Source of the DNA: Ignavibacteriota bacterium
GTDB lineage: Bacteria; Bacteroidota; Ignavibacteria; UBA10030
Direction: 5' to 3'
Assembly: GCA_963701295.1 (NCBI GenBank)
Contig: OY969585.1
Span: forward strand, 3,104,001 to 3,168,000
DNA: 64,000 nucleotides
Positions 53,373 through 61,636 of the stretch are shown here, piece after piece. Numbering within the stretch: the stretch's first letter is position 1; each line of letters opens with the position of its first letter. The notes beneath the pieces were generated by a model, which worked only from the letters and a program-made list of their open reading frames with translations, did not search any database and had not been told where the DNA came from. The position numbers and the translations under genes are program-made.

Positions 53373-53486
53373 GCCTAACGGATCGGCTCCCGATAAATCG
53401 GGACGCATCGGGAGTATAGTATTTACTTGTTGAGCTTGCGAAATCCCGCCTTGGCGGGGACTCTTTCCTTTTTAAAATGGTTAGGT
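53373..53486 (-). mobile_element. attC whose interior is replaced by a right-end remnant of the IS1111-type element
   Basis: GCCTAACGGATCGGC...ACGCATCGGGAGTATAGTATTTACTTG[insert]ACTCTTTCCTTTTTAAAATGGTTAGGT matches 60934-60987. Confidence 0.8.
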
Positions 53487-53496
53487 TGCAATTATT

Positions 53497-54720
53497 TCAC
53501 TTGAGCAAAACCAATTTTTTCGTCTGAGTGAATGAGCCAGCCTGCAAACGATAAAAATATACTCCACTTGGAAGATTGGCAGCATTAAATCTGATAGAAC
53601 ATGTGCCTGCCTGCTGACGTTCGTTGACCAACGTCTTTAATTCCTTTCCAAGTACATCGTAAACTTTCAACGTGATAAAATTAATTATTGGTAATTGATA
53701 ACGTATCACAGTCGTTGGATTAAAAGGATTCGGAAAATTTTGCTCGAGCGTGTACACTTGTGGTAATAATGATTTGTTATTATTAACGCCTGTAATCATA
53801 TCCGACAGTGGCCGTCGCCACGCGCCGGTGGCAGTGCCTGCGACAATAGTGTTGTTGCTTATGGCAAGTGCATATAGGTTTTTATCAGTCAAGCCGGAAT
53901 TGACGGCAACCCAATTACTCCCGCTGTTAGTCGAAAGAAAAACGCCGCCGCCATTAGTGCCTGCAAAAATATTACCGTCGATAACGGCGAAACCATAAAC
54001 ATAGTTGTTCAAGACGGCAGTCCAATTACTCCCGCTGTTAGTCGAACGATAAGCGTTGCCGTTCTGTGTACCTGCAAAAATAGTACTGTCGCTGATGGCA
54101 AGAGCATAAACATCATTGTTGATCAAGGCGGTGGCAGTCCAGCTCGTGCCGCTGTTAGTCGAAAGATAAACCCCGCCATATGTACCTGCAAAAATACTAC
54201 TTCCGTTGATGGCAAAAGCACCAACATCTTTGCTGGTCAGGCCGGAATCGATGGAAGTCCAGCTCGTACCACTGGTAGTCGAAAGAAAAACGCCACCGCC
54301 CCAAGTGCCTGCAAAAATATTACTGCCACTGACGGCAAGAGCATAAACATCGGTGTTGGTCAAACCTTTATTAACGGCAGTCCAGCTAGTACCACTGTTA
54401 GTCGAAATATAAACGCCGTCAGAAGTGCCTGCAAAAATATTACTGTCGATGACGGCAAGAGCACTAATATCAGTGTTGGCCAAGGTGGAATCGACGAGAG
54501 TCCAGCTCGTACCACTGTTAGTCGAAAGATAAACGCCGCCGGCATAAGTGCCTGCAAAAATATCACCGTTGATGACGGCAAAACTTCTAACACCGCCAGC
54601 ACTGCCGCTTATGCCACTGCATTGAACCCATTGGGCGTAGAGTGAATTCGCACTATTGAATAGGTAAAATGCCATAAATAGGAATCCGCCTCTGTGGATA
54701 TATCGTAAAATATCTTTCAT
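53497..54720 (-). CDS. BNR-repeat beta-propeller protein with T9SS CTD (cassette)
   Basis: Six IFAGT.GGV.LSTNSG.SW repeats; CTD LEQNFPNPFNPTT...KKLVLLK; likely start MKDILRY at 54720 (RBS AAGGAG). Confidence 0.85.
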   Translation of the reverse strand: MKDILRYIHRGGFLFMAFYLFNSANSLYAQWVQCSGISGSAGGVRSFAVINGDIFAGTYAGGVYLSTNSGTSWTLVDSTLANTDISALAVIDSNIFAGTSDGVYISTNSGTSWTAVNKGLTNTDVYALAVSGSNIFAGTWGGGVFLSTTSGTSWTSIDSGLTSKDVGAFAINGSSIFAGTYGGVYLSTNSGTSWTATALINNDVYALAISDSTIFAGTQNGNAYRSTNSGSNWTAVLNNYVYGFAVIDGNIFAGTNGGGVFLSTNSGSNWVAVNSGLTDKNLYALAISNNTIVAGTATGAWRRPLSDMITGVNNNKSLLPQVYTLEQNFPNPFNPTTVIRYQLPIINFITLKVYDVLGKELKTLVNERQQAGTCSIRFNAANLPSGVYFYRLQAGSFTQTKKLVLLK

Positions 54721-54758
54721 GGGTCTCTCCTTTTGTGATATAGCCATGTGCAATTGCA

Positions 54759-54914
54759 ACCTAACGGACCGGCGCTAAGCTGCGGCGTTGAAAAGTTTCG
54801 TAATGCAACCAACGAAACAAGTTCATTCAATTAACTTTCAATTAAACACTAAACCTATGCGCGCCATGAATTTTGCAGTGAGCTCATTCCGTCAGCTTGA
54901 GCGCCTGGTTAGGG
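54759..54914 (-). repeat. attC site (156 bp)
   Basis: ACCTAACGGACCGGCGCTAAGCTGCGG...CCGTCAGCTTGAGCGCCTGGTTAGGG. Confidence 0.9.
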
Positions 54915-54962: not shown

Positions 54963-55295
54963 ATGAATTATGAAGACAAACCTCTTGTTTGGTTACACGG
55001 TGAAGTAAAAACTCCACCGTTCTCAAAAAATGCTCGCCTTGAAGCTGGCTTTTTATTGAGACAGCTACAAGCGGGAGAAAAGCTAAGTCTCCCCTTCTCA
55101 AGACCGATGCCAGCAATTGGAGCAAGATGCCATGAACTCCGAATTAACGATGAAAATAAAATATGGCGTATCATTTATCGAATTGATTCCGATGCAATAA
55201 TTATTTTAGAAATCTTTCAAAAACAGACACAACAAACACCAAAGAATATTATTGATATCTGTAAACGTCGCTTACGAATATACGACGAATTATAA
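54963..55295 (+). CDS. RelE/ParE-family (HigB/Gp49-like) toxin
   Basis: KTPPFS..AR.EAG.LLR.LQ.G, SRPMP.IG.RCHELRI...WRIIYRID...F.K.TQ.TP. Confidence 0.88.
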   Translation: MNYEDKPLVWLHGEVKTPPFSKNARLEAGFLLRQLQAGEKLSLPFSRPMPAIGARCHELRINDENKIWRIIYRIDSDAIIILEIFQKQTQQTPKNIIDICKRRLRIYDEL

Positions 55296-55306
55296 GGACA
55301 ACAAAA

Positions 55307-55618
55307 ATGGATAAAGCAAAACAAAAACGTCTTGAATCCGCAGGATGGAAAGTTGGAACAGCAAGCAATTTCCTTAACCTTTCTTCTGAGGAATCTGCAT
55401 ATATCGAACTCAAACTTCAATTAGCAAAGAACCTGCAGAAACGACGTATTGAGAAAAAACTTACACAAATGGCAGTAGCCCGAATGCTTAAATCAAGCCA
55501 ATCGCGTGTAGCAAAAATGGAATCAGGTGATCCGACCGTTTCTATCGACCTACTCATCCGTTCTCTGTTAGCTCTCGGTGCTAAACCAAGAGCGTTATTA
55601 CGAACTATTGCTCAATAA
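55307..55618 (+). CDS. XRE/HTH antitoxin (HigA-like)
   Basis: LTQ..VA..LKSSQSRVAKMESGD HTH; 11 nt after toxin. Confidence 0.88.
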   Translation: MDKAKQKRLESAGWKVGTASNFLNLSSEESAYIELKLQLAKNLQKRRIEKKLTQMAVARMLKSSQSRVAKMESGDPTVSIDLLIRSLLALGAKPRALLRTIAQ

Positions 55619-56679: not shown

Positions 56680-56839
56680 ACCTAACGGATGGCGCATAAG
56701 CTGCGGCGTTGATAACTTTCAATATACTGAAAACGAACAAAGTTTATTCACATCACTATTGCGGAACATATCGGAAGAATATTATTTACTTGTCCGAAGG
56801 ACTCCTTCAGAGACTCTTTCCTTTTTAAAGTGGTTAGCC
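56680..56839 (-). mobile_element. attC fused to a second right-end remnant of the IS1111-type element
   Basis: ACCTAACGGATGGCGCATAAGCTGCGG...TTGCGGAACATATCGGAAGAATATTATTTACTTG[insert]ACTCTTTCCTTTTTAAAGTGGTTAGCC. Confidence 0.8.
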
Positions 56840-57914: not shown

Positions 57915-59372
57915 TCATTTGAGCAATATGAGTTTCTTCGTCTCGCTATATGAACCAGCTTGCAACCGATAAAAATAAATTCCACTCGACATATTTGCCG
58001 CAATCCATTGTTTCGTGTAACTTCCGGCTGACATTTCTTCTGAAACAATTGTCGCCACCTCTCTTCCTATCAAATCAAATACTCTTAGTGACACAAACGA
58101 TTTTGTTGGAATGCTAAATGAAATATTTGTAGAAGGATTAAAGGGATTCGGATAATTTTGCAGAAGGGAAAAAGTTTCCGGTGTAACAATGGCTACTCCC
58201 TCAACAGATGTTGGCATATTTGATTTAAGATATGGATAACCATTATTTATGCTTGAATCAATAGACCATACGGTTGTAAAATTCCAACCGTAACCGGTAA
58301 AAGTGGACTGTGATTTCATCTCAGTTGTGGTTTCACCAAATCCATCGACGCCGTTTGATTGGCCGGAGGATGTCACATCCCATAAACAGCTACCAGTGGT
58401 GGAAACGGTTTGATACCCAATCAAGCCGCCAACATGATTCGTACCCGTTGCAGAGCCACTGCTGTAGCAGTGTGTGGCGGTGGAAGAATATTTATTACCC
58501 AGAACATTATCATAATAGCCCCATTGCTCCCCAATCAAACCACCGACAAAAGAACCACCCGTTACAGAACCAATGCTGTAGCAATTCTCAATGGTGGCAG
58601 TACTTTGGTATCCAATCAAGCCACCGATATAAGAACCACCAGTTACAGAGCAACTGCTATAGCAGGTCTGGGCGTCGGCATCAATTTGATTCCCAATCAA
58701 GCCACCGATATAATAAACTCCACCAGTTACAGAACCAGTGCTGGAGCAGTTACTGACGGTGGATTCGAATTCCGACCCAATCAAGCCACCGATATAAGAA
58801 ACACCAGTTACAGAGCCACTGCTGGAGCAGTTACTGACGGTGGATTCGAATTCCGACCCAATCAAGCCACCGATATAAGAAACACCAGTTACAGAGCCAC
58901 TGCTGTGGCAGTTTATAAGAGTCCCACCCGACCCACCGTGATACCCAATTAAACCGCCGACAATATTGTTTCCAATTATCTTTACACTATCGAGCTTTAA
59001 ATTTTTGATTGTTGCCCACCATACCCTTCCAAAAAGACCAATGTAGTTCTTCGTGCTTCGGCTTATAAACAGACCGGTGATTTTATACCCCTGCCCATCG
59101 TATGAGCCATTGAAAAATTTCGTGCTATCTCCAATAGGAGAAAACCCTGCACCACCATCCCAAGAAGAACTTGTTGAGGCATCAATATCCGCTGTCTGAA
59201 TAAAATTCTTGTTCCATAAACTGCTGTCTTGTATAATCCAATAAAGGTTGTTTAATGTCGCAATTTGATAAGGATCGCCTGATGTACCGGATCCTGAAGG
59301 CTGGGTAGCCGTTTGGGAAAATAATGTGCTTGCAAAAAAAAGGAGAGCAAAAACTAATAATAAGTTTTTCAT
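57915..59372 (-). CDS. GLUG-repeat surface protein with T9SS CTD (cassette)
   Basis: GSGT..DPYQI, GSVTG..YIGGLIG repeats, CTD LLQNYPNPFNPST...KKLILLK. Confidence 0.87.
   Translation of the reverse strand: MKNLLLVFALLFFASTLFSQTATQPSGSGTSGDPYQIATLNNLYWIIQDSSLWNKNFIQTADIDASTSSSWDGGAGFSPIGDSTKFFNGSYDGQGYKITGLFISRSTKNYIGLFGRVWWATIKNLKLDSVKIIGNNIVGGLIGYHGGSGGTLINCHSSGSVTGVSYIGGLIGSEFESTVSNCSSSGSVTGVSYIGGLIGSEFESTVSNCSSTGSVTGGVYYIGGLIGNQIDADAQTCYSSCSVTGGSYIGGLIGYQSTATIENCYSIGSVTGGSFVGGLIGEQWGYYDNVLGNKYSSTATHCYSSGSATGTNHVGGLIGYQTVSTTGSCLWDVTSSGQSNGVDGFGETTTEMKSQSTFTGYGWNFTTVWSIDSSINNGYPYLKSNMPTSVEGVAIVTPETFSLLQNYPNPFNPSTNISFSIPTKSFVSLRVFDLIGREVATIVSEEMSAGSYTKQWIAANMSSGIYFYRLQAGSYSETKKLILLK
58741..58902. 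repeat. Perfect 81-bp tandem duplication within the GLUG gene
   Basis: CTGGAGCAGTTACTGACGG...CAGAGCCACTG present twice in tandem. Confidence 0.85.
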
Positions 59373-59410: not shown

Positions 59411-59600
59411 ACCTAACGGGTGGGCACTAAGCTGCCGCACTGAATACTTTCAAGTTGCTGAAAACGAAACAAGTTTATGCTGATAACGAAATTAATTCCA
59501 CAAATGTTATGAAGTACAAAGAACTTAATAATAAAAACTGAAAACCACCATTCGCCATGCGTAAAGTACCAACGCTCATCCGGTCAGCTTGAGTGCCTGG
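59411..59600 (-). repeat. attC site (long class) split by IS; its R'' lies at 60981-60987
   Basis: ACCTAACGGGTGGGCACTAAGCTG...GTCAGCTTGAGTGCCTGG | IS | TTAGGC. Confidence 0.88.
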
Positions 59601-59681
59601 ATATTACCAAAAAGGAATCTCCCGATTATGTACATTGATAATTCTCTAGGTCACCAACATCCACAATCTAAGGAGATTCCC

Positions 59682-60683
59682 ATGTATTACTCAGGTATCG
59701 ATTTGCATTCTGATAATTGTTTTATCACCACTGTTGATGACACTGGTGCTGTCATCAAGCGACAACGTGTCGAGAATAACAATGAACGTGTTCTTGATTA
59801 CTTCCACTCTCTGCCCGGTCCTCATCACGCAGTCGTTGAGTCTACCACAGGATGGTACTGGCTCAACGATCTTCTCAGCGATCACGGCATCGAGCTTGTC
59901 CTTGCTCACGCCAAATATCTCAAAGCCATCAGTTATGCTAAAGTTAAAACAGATAAAGTCGATTCGCAAACTCTTGCTCTTCTCTTACGACAGGGACTCA
60001 TTCCACGGGCTCACAAAATCAGCCGAGAACTACGCGGCCTGCGCGATACCATGCGTATTCGTCTACGGCTCGTTCAGCAACGAACTGCCAGTCTTCTGCG
60101 TCTCTACAGTATTCAGACCAAATTTAACGGCTCTGTTCCGGATCCGTATCGTTTTCAACTTGCTGTCTTGCAACATACCAGAGACACTTTTACTGCTCAG
60201 ATCCTCTCGCTGGAAAAATCTCTCCATCCTGTGCTGATTCCCAACGACGATATTCAACGGCTCTTGCACATTCCAGGTATCGGCAAGCTCACCGCATTCA
60301 CGGTGTATCTTGAAATCGACGGCATTGAACGATTCGACTCCGATAAAAAGTTTGTCTCTTACTGCCGACTCGTCCCTGCTGCCGATAACTCCAATCGCTC
60401 TGTGCACCATCGCTCCAGCAAAGACGGCAATAAGTATCTCAAAATCGCCTTCTCCGATGCCGCTGTTCATGCTATTCAGTACTATCCGGAATACAAACGC
60501 TTATTCCAGAAATTAGCTCGTCGCTCCAATGAGGCGACTGCGCGAACCGTCGTTGCCAAAGAACTTGCGAAGATTGTTTACTATGTCTTAAAAAACAAAA
60601 CAATATATAAAGGTCTCAAAGGTCAGCCGATCAGCCGGCATAAATCTCAGCAGTGGCCGCGCCTCTCAAGCCCGCTTTCCTAA
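59682..60683 (+). CDS. IS110-family DEDD transposase/recombinase
   Basis: YSGIDLH, VVEST, KTDKVDS, IPGIGKLTA, SYCRLVP...S, KDGNKYLK; ATG 59682 after AAGGAG. Confidence 0.93.
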   Translation: MYYSGIDLHSDNCFITTVDDTGAVIKRQRVENNNERVLDYFHSLPGPHHAVVESTTGWYWLNDLLSDHGIELVLAHAKYLKAISYAKVKTDKVDSQTLALLLRQGLIPRAHKISRELRGLRDTMRIRLRLVQQRTASLLRLYSIQTKFNGSVPDPYRFQLAVLQHTRDTFTAQILSLEKSLHPVLIPNDDIQRLLHIPGIGKLTAFTVYLEIDGIERFDSDKKFVSYCRLVPAADNSNRSVHHRSSKDGNKYLKIAFSDAAVHAIQYYPEYKRLFQKLARRSNEATARTVVAKELAKIVYYVLKNKTIYKGLKGQPISRHKSQQWPRLSSPLS

Positions 60684-60900
60684 CTGATCCCGACTGCGTC
60701 GGGATCGTTCGCTGGATTGGGAAGAGAGTGCGCTGTGCCGTGGTAATATCTGGAACATCTCGCTCGACGAGATACGCTTTCACCATCGTTTCTTCAATGA
60801 GTGAATGTAAATCCGTAAACTGGTTTGGACGGCATTGCTCTGGTAATCGCCTGTCTATTCGATAGAGAACGCGGCATCGGCACGGATTCGGTCGTCCTTA
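60675..60900 (+). ncRNA. Candidate seek/bridge RNA of the IS1111-type element
   Basis: Structured region (GATCCCGAC/GTCGGGATC; GTGCCG/CGGCAC) with segments matching the IS junction (TGGTAATATC, TAAACTGG) and target (CCTAAC); boundaries uncertain. Confidence 0.55.
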
Positions 60901-60981
60901 ATGTTAAAGAACTCTGCATTCCGATTGCGCGGAACGCATCGGGAGTATATTATTTACTTGACTCTTTCCTTTTTAAACTGG

Positions 60982-61401
60982 TTAGGCGGCATTAATACAT
61001 AAAGATTTTTTACGAATCATAATGATAACCAATTTCTGTCGCTGAATAATGCTACCAAATAAGTACGCGATAGAAGGAAGCAACAACAACTGAGAACTAT
61101 ACTGTATAAAAACGTTATCGATAAATTGCGCTCGGACTATCAAGAAACAAAATGTAAATGTGATAATCCCATGCCAAGCAATATTCTTTCGTGAACGTTC
61201 TATGACATTTTGAATTGTACCTTTTTGAGCCCACTTTTCTGTGCCCCTTTTTGTGACCCAATGCCGTAACATTCTAATATTTAATTTCTGCCAAAACTTC
61301 TGTTCAATTTCTGTAACCGGTAAACAGATTAAAGGAATAGATATAATTGACAATACTAGGCAAACAATTGATGGAATAAAAAGTATAAACTGAATCTTCA
61401 T
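60982..61401 (-). CDS. Hypothetical membrane protein (cassette)
   Basis: Stop inside R''; ends TTAATGCCGCCTAAC / GTTAGGCGGCATTAA perfectly complementary. Confidence 0.65.
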   Translation of the reverse strand: MKIQFILFIPSIVCLVLSIISIPLICLPVTEIEQKFWQKLNIRMLRHWVTKRGTEKWAQKGTIQNVIERSRKNIAWHGIITFTFCFLIVRAQFIDNVFIQYSSQLLLLPSIAYLFGSIIQRQKLVIIMIRKKSLCINAA

Positions 61402-61428
61402 TTACTTGTCTAGATGTTTTTTAATGCC

Positions 61429-61623
61429 GCCTAACGGACCGGCGCTAAGCTGCGGCATGACAAAACCTCAACCTGCACCCAACGAAACAAGTTTAACCAC
61501 AAAACCAAATTAATAAAAACTAAACCAGCGAGAAACTTAAAACAAACTTAACAAACGTAAACCCACCACGCGCAATGTAAATTGCACTACGCTCACTCCG
61601 TCAGCTTGAGCGCCTGGTTAGGT
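61429..61623 (-). repeat. attC site (195 bp)
   Basis: GCCTAACGGACCGGCGCTAAGCTGCGG...CCGTCAGCTTGAGCGCCTGGTTAGGT. Confidence 0.9.
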
Positions 61624-61636
61624 TGCGTTTTGCCGA

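Follow-up and report, generated by a model that had tools for sequence, protein, structure and literature searches.

RNA-guided recombination of this kind was described in 2024 (PMC11187229, PMC11208160). In the parts of these papers used here, seekRNAs are shown for the attC-targeting elements ISKpn4 and ISPst6 (PMC11187229), and bridge RNAs with donor-binding bases are predicted for 93% of IS1111 elements (PMC11208160), so that the principle is already known. In the seekRNA sections of PMC11187229, no donor loop is reported. In IS621, according to the sections consulted of PMC11208158, the top strand is cut 3′ of a 2-nt core, the cut in the bottom strand lies between 9* and 10*, and each right guide is followed by two handshake bases that pair with the other DNA. 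Exchange of the top strand is reported as dominant in excerpts of two preprints (bioRxiv 10.1101/2025.10.25.684509; 10.64898/2026.08.31.748434). Further literature for comparison, also used in part, is PMC3001079, PMC11616780, and PMC13626964. Targeting of attC by a downstream guide RNA is thus a published principle; the lineage and the cut point of the element described below differ from those of the published attC-targeting elements.

The window is a stretch of 64,000 nt from an Ignavibacteriota genome, and coordinates refer to it unless stated otherwise. It contains an insertion sequence within an attC site:

59411–59598, minus strand: part of the host attC left of the insertion (R′, L′, long spacer, and L″), from arm pairing and 113 empty sites of the same family
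59599–60979, plus strand: insertion sequence of 1381 bp, from nine identical copies, with ends from junction inheritance and the crossover inferred between −3 and −2
59609–59617, plus strand: left subterminal inverted repeat AAAAAGGAA, 9 bp
59682–60683, plus strand: IS110-family DEDD recombinase, 333 aa, from PF01548 and PF02371 (Pfam), NF033542 (NCBIfam), and alignment to IS621
60966–60974, plus strand: right subterminal inverted repeat TTCCTTTTT, 9 bp
60981–60987, minus strand: R″ box of the interrupted attC, carrying the stop codon of the cassette ORF 60982–61401 (minus strand)

Positions are numbered from the junctions, −1 being the last G before ATATT (left junction, 59600) or before TTAG (right junction, 60981). 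With the GG core included at both ends, the element spans 59599–60981. The 3.64-Mb genome contains nine identical copies (type A) and two related ones (type B, 89% protein identity). All 11 full copies occupy one identical attC position and, in 11/11 cases, the element is antisense to the integron cassette genes. In the window, the cassette ORF on the minus strand stops inside R″, which makes this strand the top strand of the attC. The attC repeat family is defined by its own arm pattern; by this pattern count, 124 sites occur in the genome (11 occupied and 113 empty), and the interrupted sites make up ~9% of them. The arms CCTAAC..GCACTAAGCTG / CAGCTTGAGTGCC pair and leave one extrahelical G. 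An integron integrase (IntI) scoring above the TIGR02249 cut-off adjoins one cassette array elsewhere in the genome. The placement between L″ and R″ given in a preliminary description, made from the letters of this stretch, is borne out, opposite to the cassette genes, and the 9-bp subterminal repeats it had reported are located at both ends; in relatives such as L019, the repeat reaches 14 bp, with matching changes on both ends. Since the insertion separates R″ from L″, it likely disables the attC and fuses two cassettes.

Several other features of the arrays can be mentioned here. The attC sites are long (~150–200 bp), with conserved internal segments (61428–61624 in the window and other array sites). 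Right-end remnants of related elements are joined to R″ at 53399–53484 and 56761–56837 of the window, and others lie near 162892, 1810042, 2382024, 2384977, and 2387518 in genome coordinates (contig C1). They end in AAAATGG or AAAGTGG, never in the AAACTGG of type A, and several directly follow an attC left arm, without L″; they are scars of older invasions. The two type-B copies (2397736–2396322 and 2410027–2408630, also in genome coordinates) have a common left flank and a common 5′ part of 1.2 kb with different 3′ ends, and one of them looks chimeric. Two small adjacent ORFs at 54963–55618 (plus strand) resemble a cassette with a RelE/HigB-type toxin and an HTH antitoxin, and the cassette ORFs 53497–54759 and 57915–59372 have signal-peptide-like starts and a C-terminal tail that we take to resemble type IX secretion sorting domains.

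The recombinase belongs to the IS110 superfamily, as had been proposed: the RuvC-like DEDD domain and PF02371 with the catalytic serine are present, the 333-aa protein matches PF01548 and the IS110-family RNA-guided transposase model NF033542, and the alignment to IS621, which scores only ~28 bits, places the catalytic residues at E53, D91, D94, and S237. Residue D7 lies in a GIDLH motif, beyond the span of that alignment. The closest homologs, among the matches listed, come from Ignavibacteriota and Bacteroidota assemblies. The nearest named lineage is the ISGsu4/ISGsu5/ISShfr7/ISShwo5 cluster (31% identity to an ISGsu4-family protein); ISGsu4 is listed as IS110 in the data of PMC11187229 used here. 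Plasmid relatives with the same RNA scaffold show 30–33% identity, and most of them target sequences other than attC.

The features that define IS1111 and are present here are the long noncoding region downstream of tnp (296 bp, vs. 83 bp upstream), the subterminal repeats, and a top-strand match 5′ of the bottom-strand match. The resemblance to the IS1111-attC group (ISKpn4, ISPst6, ISPa25, and ISPa21), as far as covered in the material taken from PMC11187229, PMC3001079, and PMC13604230, extends to the use of attC near the cassette-proximal end, antisense to the cassettes, to the subterminal repeats, and to an RNA downstream of the gene with the top-strand match before the bottom-strand match. 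The insertion point listed for that group, however, is AA*CG or AG*CG in ..TTGAG*CGACTTGTTAG (PMC13604230, Table 1), ~5 nt nearer to L″ than the cut found here, CT|GG-TTAG. The recombinase is only 20–24% identical to the core IS1111 members ISEc11, IS5075, and IS5708; a FastTree tree, which carries long-branch warnings, sets it apart from them by a branch of support 100. In the matrix published in PMC11187229, ISGsu4 shares 17% identity with ISPst6, ISKpn4, and ISPa21. The same paper, in its sections on the family, gives for IS1111, as defined by Partridge and Hall, the motif GL-P----S(t)G, where RLVPAADNSN is found here, and a spacing of the repeats in the circle of 10 bp (7 plus 3 for extensions), as against 15 bp here and in the relatives. 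The subterminal repeats of IS1111 are usually of 11–13 bp (7–17 bp in the relevant part of PMC11208160), compared with 9 bp here and 14 bp in relatives. None of ISKpn4, ISPa21, or ISPst6 occurs among the plasmid matches listed. The element would thus fall outside both the core IS1111 clade and the IS1111-attC group, the latter being compared through the ISGsu4 identities, the motif, and the listed cut rather than by direct alignment. Membership in the IS1111-attC subgroup, implied in the preliminary description, does not hold, since transposase lineage, repeat spacing, and cut point all differ. The targeting of attC has likely arisen by convergence, independently of the IS1111-attC group. Two plasmid elements of ~30% identity, L164 (Pseudoalteromonas) and L162 (Alteromonas), have a CTAAC guide and are located at G|TTAG; the L164 flank looks like an attC, so that this cut point may serve in Gammaproteobacteria too.

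The region downstream of the recombinase can be read as an RNA with two loops and four guides:

60659–60733, plus strand: predicted target-binding loop, with stems GCGC/GCGC, CTCTC/GAGAG, and CCC/GGG and an inner hairpin at 60686–60706, from covariation and fold
60679–60685, plus strand: 5′ target guide CCUAAC-U, pairing with the plus strand GGTTAGG right of the junction
60709–60715, plus strand: 3′ target guide UCGCUGG, pairing with the minus strand left of the junction
60716–60717, plus strand: predicted handshake dinucleotide AU of the target loop (= donor +1,+2)
60736–60834, plus strand: predicted donor-binding loop, with an outer CC/GG closure and an inner stem, GGA 60752–60754 with TCC 60812–60814
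60745–60751, plus strand: 5′ donor guide AAUAUC-U, pairing with GGATATT at the left end
60817–60823, plus strand: 3′ donor guide AAACUGG, matching the right end
60824–60825, plus strand: predicted handshake dinucleotide UU of the donor loop (= target +1,+2)

This anatomy was followed in 158 related loci (43–91% identity; the best 80 of 95 and the best 80 of 166 matches). With three own copies added, the four guides could be parsed in 119/161; the rows left out are 22 without the 3′ region, 13 with a parsing offset (the 61–67% clade), and seven with motif variants. The layout is constant: in the target part, a stem, CCUAAC-U, a hairpin, a 7-nt guide, AU-U, and a stem; in the donor part, CC, AAUAUC-U, a hairpin, a 7-nt guide, UU-U, and GG. 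The target loop overlaps the last codons of the recombinase, and the stop codon TAA sits within the first target guide. In its stems, 92% of the cells are paired, with 106 double-sided changes among 36 sequences (slid controls, at most 46%); in the same sequences, the inner helix is paired in 64% at fixed register only, because the hairpin length varies. The inner stem of the donor loop (for which RNAalifold was also run) is paired in 90, 90, and 87 of 90 RNAs for its three pairs, the third being A–T in 46, G–C in 39, and T–A in two. The closure that is conserved is CC 60738–60739 with GG 60827–60828, and the GTGCCG/CGGCAC stem suggested before has to be given up, since the CGGCAC at ~60888 differs in the type-B copies. 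The perfect hairpin is found as a 9-bp hairpin at 60686–60706, and the four strings singled out as candidate guides are all in place (CCTAACTG at 60679–60686, CGCTGG at 60710–60715, TGGTAATATCTGG at 60741–60753, and TAAACTGG at 60816–60823). In 20,000 dinucleotide shuffles of 60675–60900, the four guide words, which were picked after seeing the sequence, never occur together; singly, CCTAAC occurs 437 times, CGCTGG 1953, AATATC 1622, and TAAACTGG 65. The single-sequence fold gives z = −2.1, and no Rfam family is found in the window at gathering scores. In the distant plasmid relatives L159 (2590–2720) and, in the matching region, L161, L163, and L165–L169, a third guide-like loop appears to be present between the target and donor loops; it is possibly a second target loop with another specificity.

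The agreement between guides and DNA was counted with one row per distinct RNA (80–85 distinct RNAs), against shuffled pairings. The 3′ target guide matches the left flank (n = 80) at −7 in 39 cases (27 in shuffled pairings), at −6 in 57 (31), and at −5 in 66 (34), and the 5′ target guide matches the right flank (n = 85) at +4 in 69 (56) and at +6 in 52 (41). With the element ends, the 3′ donor guide matches the right end (n = 85) at −3 in 83 (33), at −4 in 72 (40; the 13 others are mismatches), and at −7 in 83 (64), and the 5′ donor guide matches the left end (n = 80) at +6 in 70 (38). The cross-controls are flat apart from −2, which is shared, and −3, where there is a slight excess. Shuffled pairings ignore relatedness. 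A count along the protein tree yields, among the pairs listed, 2–7 independent pairs per guide position, of which 2.0–3.5 change in the same way and 0–0.2 in the opposite way; almost none go the wrong way, and no single guide position reaches p < 0.05. The covariation across homologs asked for at the outset is present as a tracking of targets and ends by the guides over 80–85 RNAs, without reaching significance at any position once relatedness is considered.

Within the genome, the guide also separates occupied from empty sites. A G at −5, which matches the guide, is present in 10/11 occupied and 33/113 empty sites (p = 1e-4) and, with duplicated flanks removed, in 8/9 occupied sites (p = 7e-4). 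The one exception is the copy of the window, the site of which (TGC) mismatches the guide at −5 and −6. That copy, and the nature of attC as a structured repeat, would suit a recombinase that recognizes attC through protein contacts, as a folded hairpin or as a sequence, the RNA matches being leftovers. Such a reading is highly improbable, however: the guide predicts the occupied attC subfamily within the genome and across hosts, and relatives that share the scaffold but have other guides are inserted outside attC, in targets matching those guides. RNA-guided targeting of attC is very probable, and the proposal of a downstream guide region, with target and donor guides, programmed against the attC family of the host gains from both the matching among homologs and the −5 preference in the genome. 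A rewriting of the flank by the insertion (TTG or CCG instead of CGC) was considered separately and rejected; the flanks belong to native attC subfamilies, which have matching partner arms and also occur as empty sites.

For the donor loop, a seekRNA model can be envisaged, in which the target loop alone (~75–80 nt, 60659–60733) acts as the guide, the protein recognizes the ends by their subterminal repeats, and the donor loop can be dispensed with, being a relic or part of a precursor. In ISEc11, an 82-nt RNA alone supported movement and, in the part of PMC11187229 concerned, only target matches are reported. The subterminal repeats are conserved here with matching changes, and one clade has a short 5′ donor guide (it pairs over only ~3 nt in the 61–67% clade, 13 rows outside the matching test). 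Yet the donor guides track the ends across homologs (−3 in 83/85 and +6 in 70/80) and between types A and B, the 3′ donor guide following the right end in its own genome (CTGG in type A vs. ATGG in type B), and the donor-loop stem is kept where its hairpin shrinks to a few bases (L036 and L047). We consider this model unlikely and retain a donor loop predicted to read the joined ends. The 10-nt donor complement noticed initially is only partly retained: about six of its bases matter, while the outer three stay at the shuffled level (n = 80; 31 vs. 30 at +7, 19 vs. 19 at +8, and 39 vs. 39 at +9) and two are lost in type B.

The junctions delimit the core. CTGG occurs at both junctions in all nine type-A copies, in line with the geometry first put forward, a 4-nt CTGG core duplicated at both ends with the plus strand as the top strand. 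Among 86 distinct homologous insertions, however, only eight have four nucleotides common to both junctions, positions −3 and −4 of the right junction follow the element and not the target, and the type-B copies have TTAG at the left and ATGG or GTGG at the right. A core of that length is already largely refuted, and the geometry as a whole has next to no probability left. In the insertions that have different −3 bases in the donor guide and at the left junction (four mis-parsed rows dropped), the base at the right junction is that of the guide in 38/38. In one subclade, the −2 base is T at the left in 24/24, and at the right G in 13 and T in 11; in the empty attC-like matches (some of which may not be attC) of five hosts of that subclade, it is G in 24 and T in nine. 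The −2 at the left would thus travel with the element and that at the right come from the target, which places the crossover between −3 and −2, the element at 59599–60979, and the core at 2 nt. The evidence points, at the level of sequence comparison, to a core of ~2 nt (GG) with the crossover between T59598 and G59599. Type B agrees with this placement, with TTAG at the left in both copies (which have a common left flank and count as one event).

IS621 offers a template for the arrangement of guides, core, and strands. The likenesses with it, as far as described in the portions used of PMC11208160, PMC11208158, and PMC13626964, are an active site of DEDD plus serine, a pair of pseudo-symmetric loops, CU at the end of the 5′ guides, 3′ guides of 7 nt, a 2-nt core, a junction promoter, and handshake dinucleotides, that of the target loop being AU in both. 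By the same sources, the IS621 RNA is encoded in the left end and its target is REP, whereas here the RNA is encoded in the right end, downstream and overlapping the last codons, and the target is attC. The DNA orientation relative to the gene is also opposite to that of IS621, and there are subterminal repeats of 9–14 bp. If the minus strand is taken as the equivalent of the IS621 top strand, the loop order of IS621, the CU guide ends, the −3/−2 cut, and the handshake dinucleotides after the 3′ guides all follow. The inheritance of the junction bases speaks for the minus strand as well. The IS621-type traits would then be the separate target and donor loops with two guides each and, by the flipped orientation, the handshakes.

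The handshakes were examined in 13 plasmid relatives (30–35% identity; 10 readable and three unreadable), read by eye and in part confirmed by script (L162, L164, L165, and several right ends by eye only). Among the readable distant relatives, 8/9 have the same dinucleotide in the target loop as at donor +1,+2 (AT, AG, and AA), and 8/9 have the same in the donor loop as at target +1,+2 (TT, TC, and AC); in L163 and L159, only one base matches. In the close clade, the discriminating first handshake base is A in 91/92 target loops and U in 92/92 donor loops and, with letters invariant at that position, the covariation comes from the 10 distant loci, some of them near-identical (L161/L165 and L162/L164 are related pairs). 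ISEc11 appears, by eye, to fit the flipped layout, its 4-bp repeat corresponding to −2..+2. Against the flipped geometry counts the core: its fixed base is the second in IS621 but the first here, where the second varies. The trinucleotides UGG and UGA that follow the 5′ guides were also tried as handshakes, in the orientation first assumed, and rejected: they are part of hairpin stems that begin after one unpaired U, and their pairing with the other DNA does not exceed chance.

We regard the flipped IS621 geometry as reasonably likely. With good confidence, the explanation that best covers the whole locus would be a multi-copy, RNA-guided attC element with a two-loop bridge RNA used in that geometry. 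An element of the IS110 superfamily would move by RNA-guided recombination, and its 3′ noncoding region would yield a bridge RNA with one loop for the attC target and one for the joined element ends. Each loop would have the layout of IS621, with a 5′ guide ending in CU, a hairpin, a 7-nt 3′ guide, the handshake dinucleotide, a U, and a stem, but relative to the recombinase gene it would engage DNA the other way round. The first cut would fall on the minus strand (the attC top strand), between −3 and −2, around the 2-nt core. The handshakes, AU with donor +1,+2 and UU with target +1,+2, would give two pairs before exchange and four after. The products would mostly keep the sequence of the minus strand; keeping the sequence of one strand agrees with the reported dominance of top-strand exchange. 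The left junction of L047 begins with TT instead of AT and the right flank of L024 with AT instead of TT; this is the pattern expected if the sequence of the second strand is occasionally kept, although these are two single cases for which point mutation is an alternative.

Circularization would join the two halves of a promoter, from which the recombinase and the RNA would be transcribed:

60958–60963, plus strand: TTGACT, −35 hexamer of the promoter predicted for the circle junction, 17 nt upstream of the junction G
59600–59605, plus strand: GATATT, −10 hexamer of the same predicted promoter

The TTGACT-17-GATATT promoter foreseen in the preliminary description is plausible; its hexamers are conserved, and GATATT is present in 75/75 distinct elements having both ends. 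A scan for promoters in the linear form gives four hits, with 2.0 expected, which is uninformative. The joint of right to left end was looked for in four of 22 listed public runs, all contigs-only, and is found in none; the RNA runs are from relatives only, so that for circles and RNA ends this weak test is no evidence of absence.

We give slightly better than even chances to a broader view, in which elements whose guide RNA is encoded 3′ of the gene are complete bridge systems of the IS621 type, binding DNA in the opposite orientation, the “reversed guide order” of IS1111 is a matter of strand labeling with the bottom strand cut first, and attC was reached here independently of the IS1111-attC group, at another cut point and with a guide retuned to the attC subfamilies of the host. 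In the literature searched, no paper deals with the lineage or with a flipped-strand reading of 3′ RNAs; figures (notably Extended Data Fig. 10c of PMC11208160) and two scanned supplements lie outside that search and may show it.

If the broader view is true, these elements hold a natural record of guide–target coevolution with integrons, and the flipped-strand reading would reconcile the seekRNA and bridge-RNA descriptions. The locus provides precise design rules that can be put to the test, concerning the guide lengths, the 2-nt core, the handshake bases, and the strand cut first, for an uncharacterized lineage of compact RNA-guided recombinases. For the integrons, it represents a second, likely independent, route of such elements into cassette sites, where older invasions have left their right-end scars.
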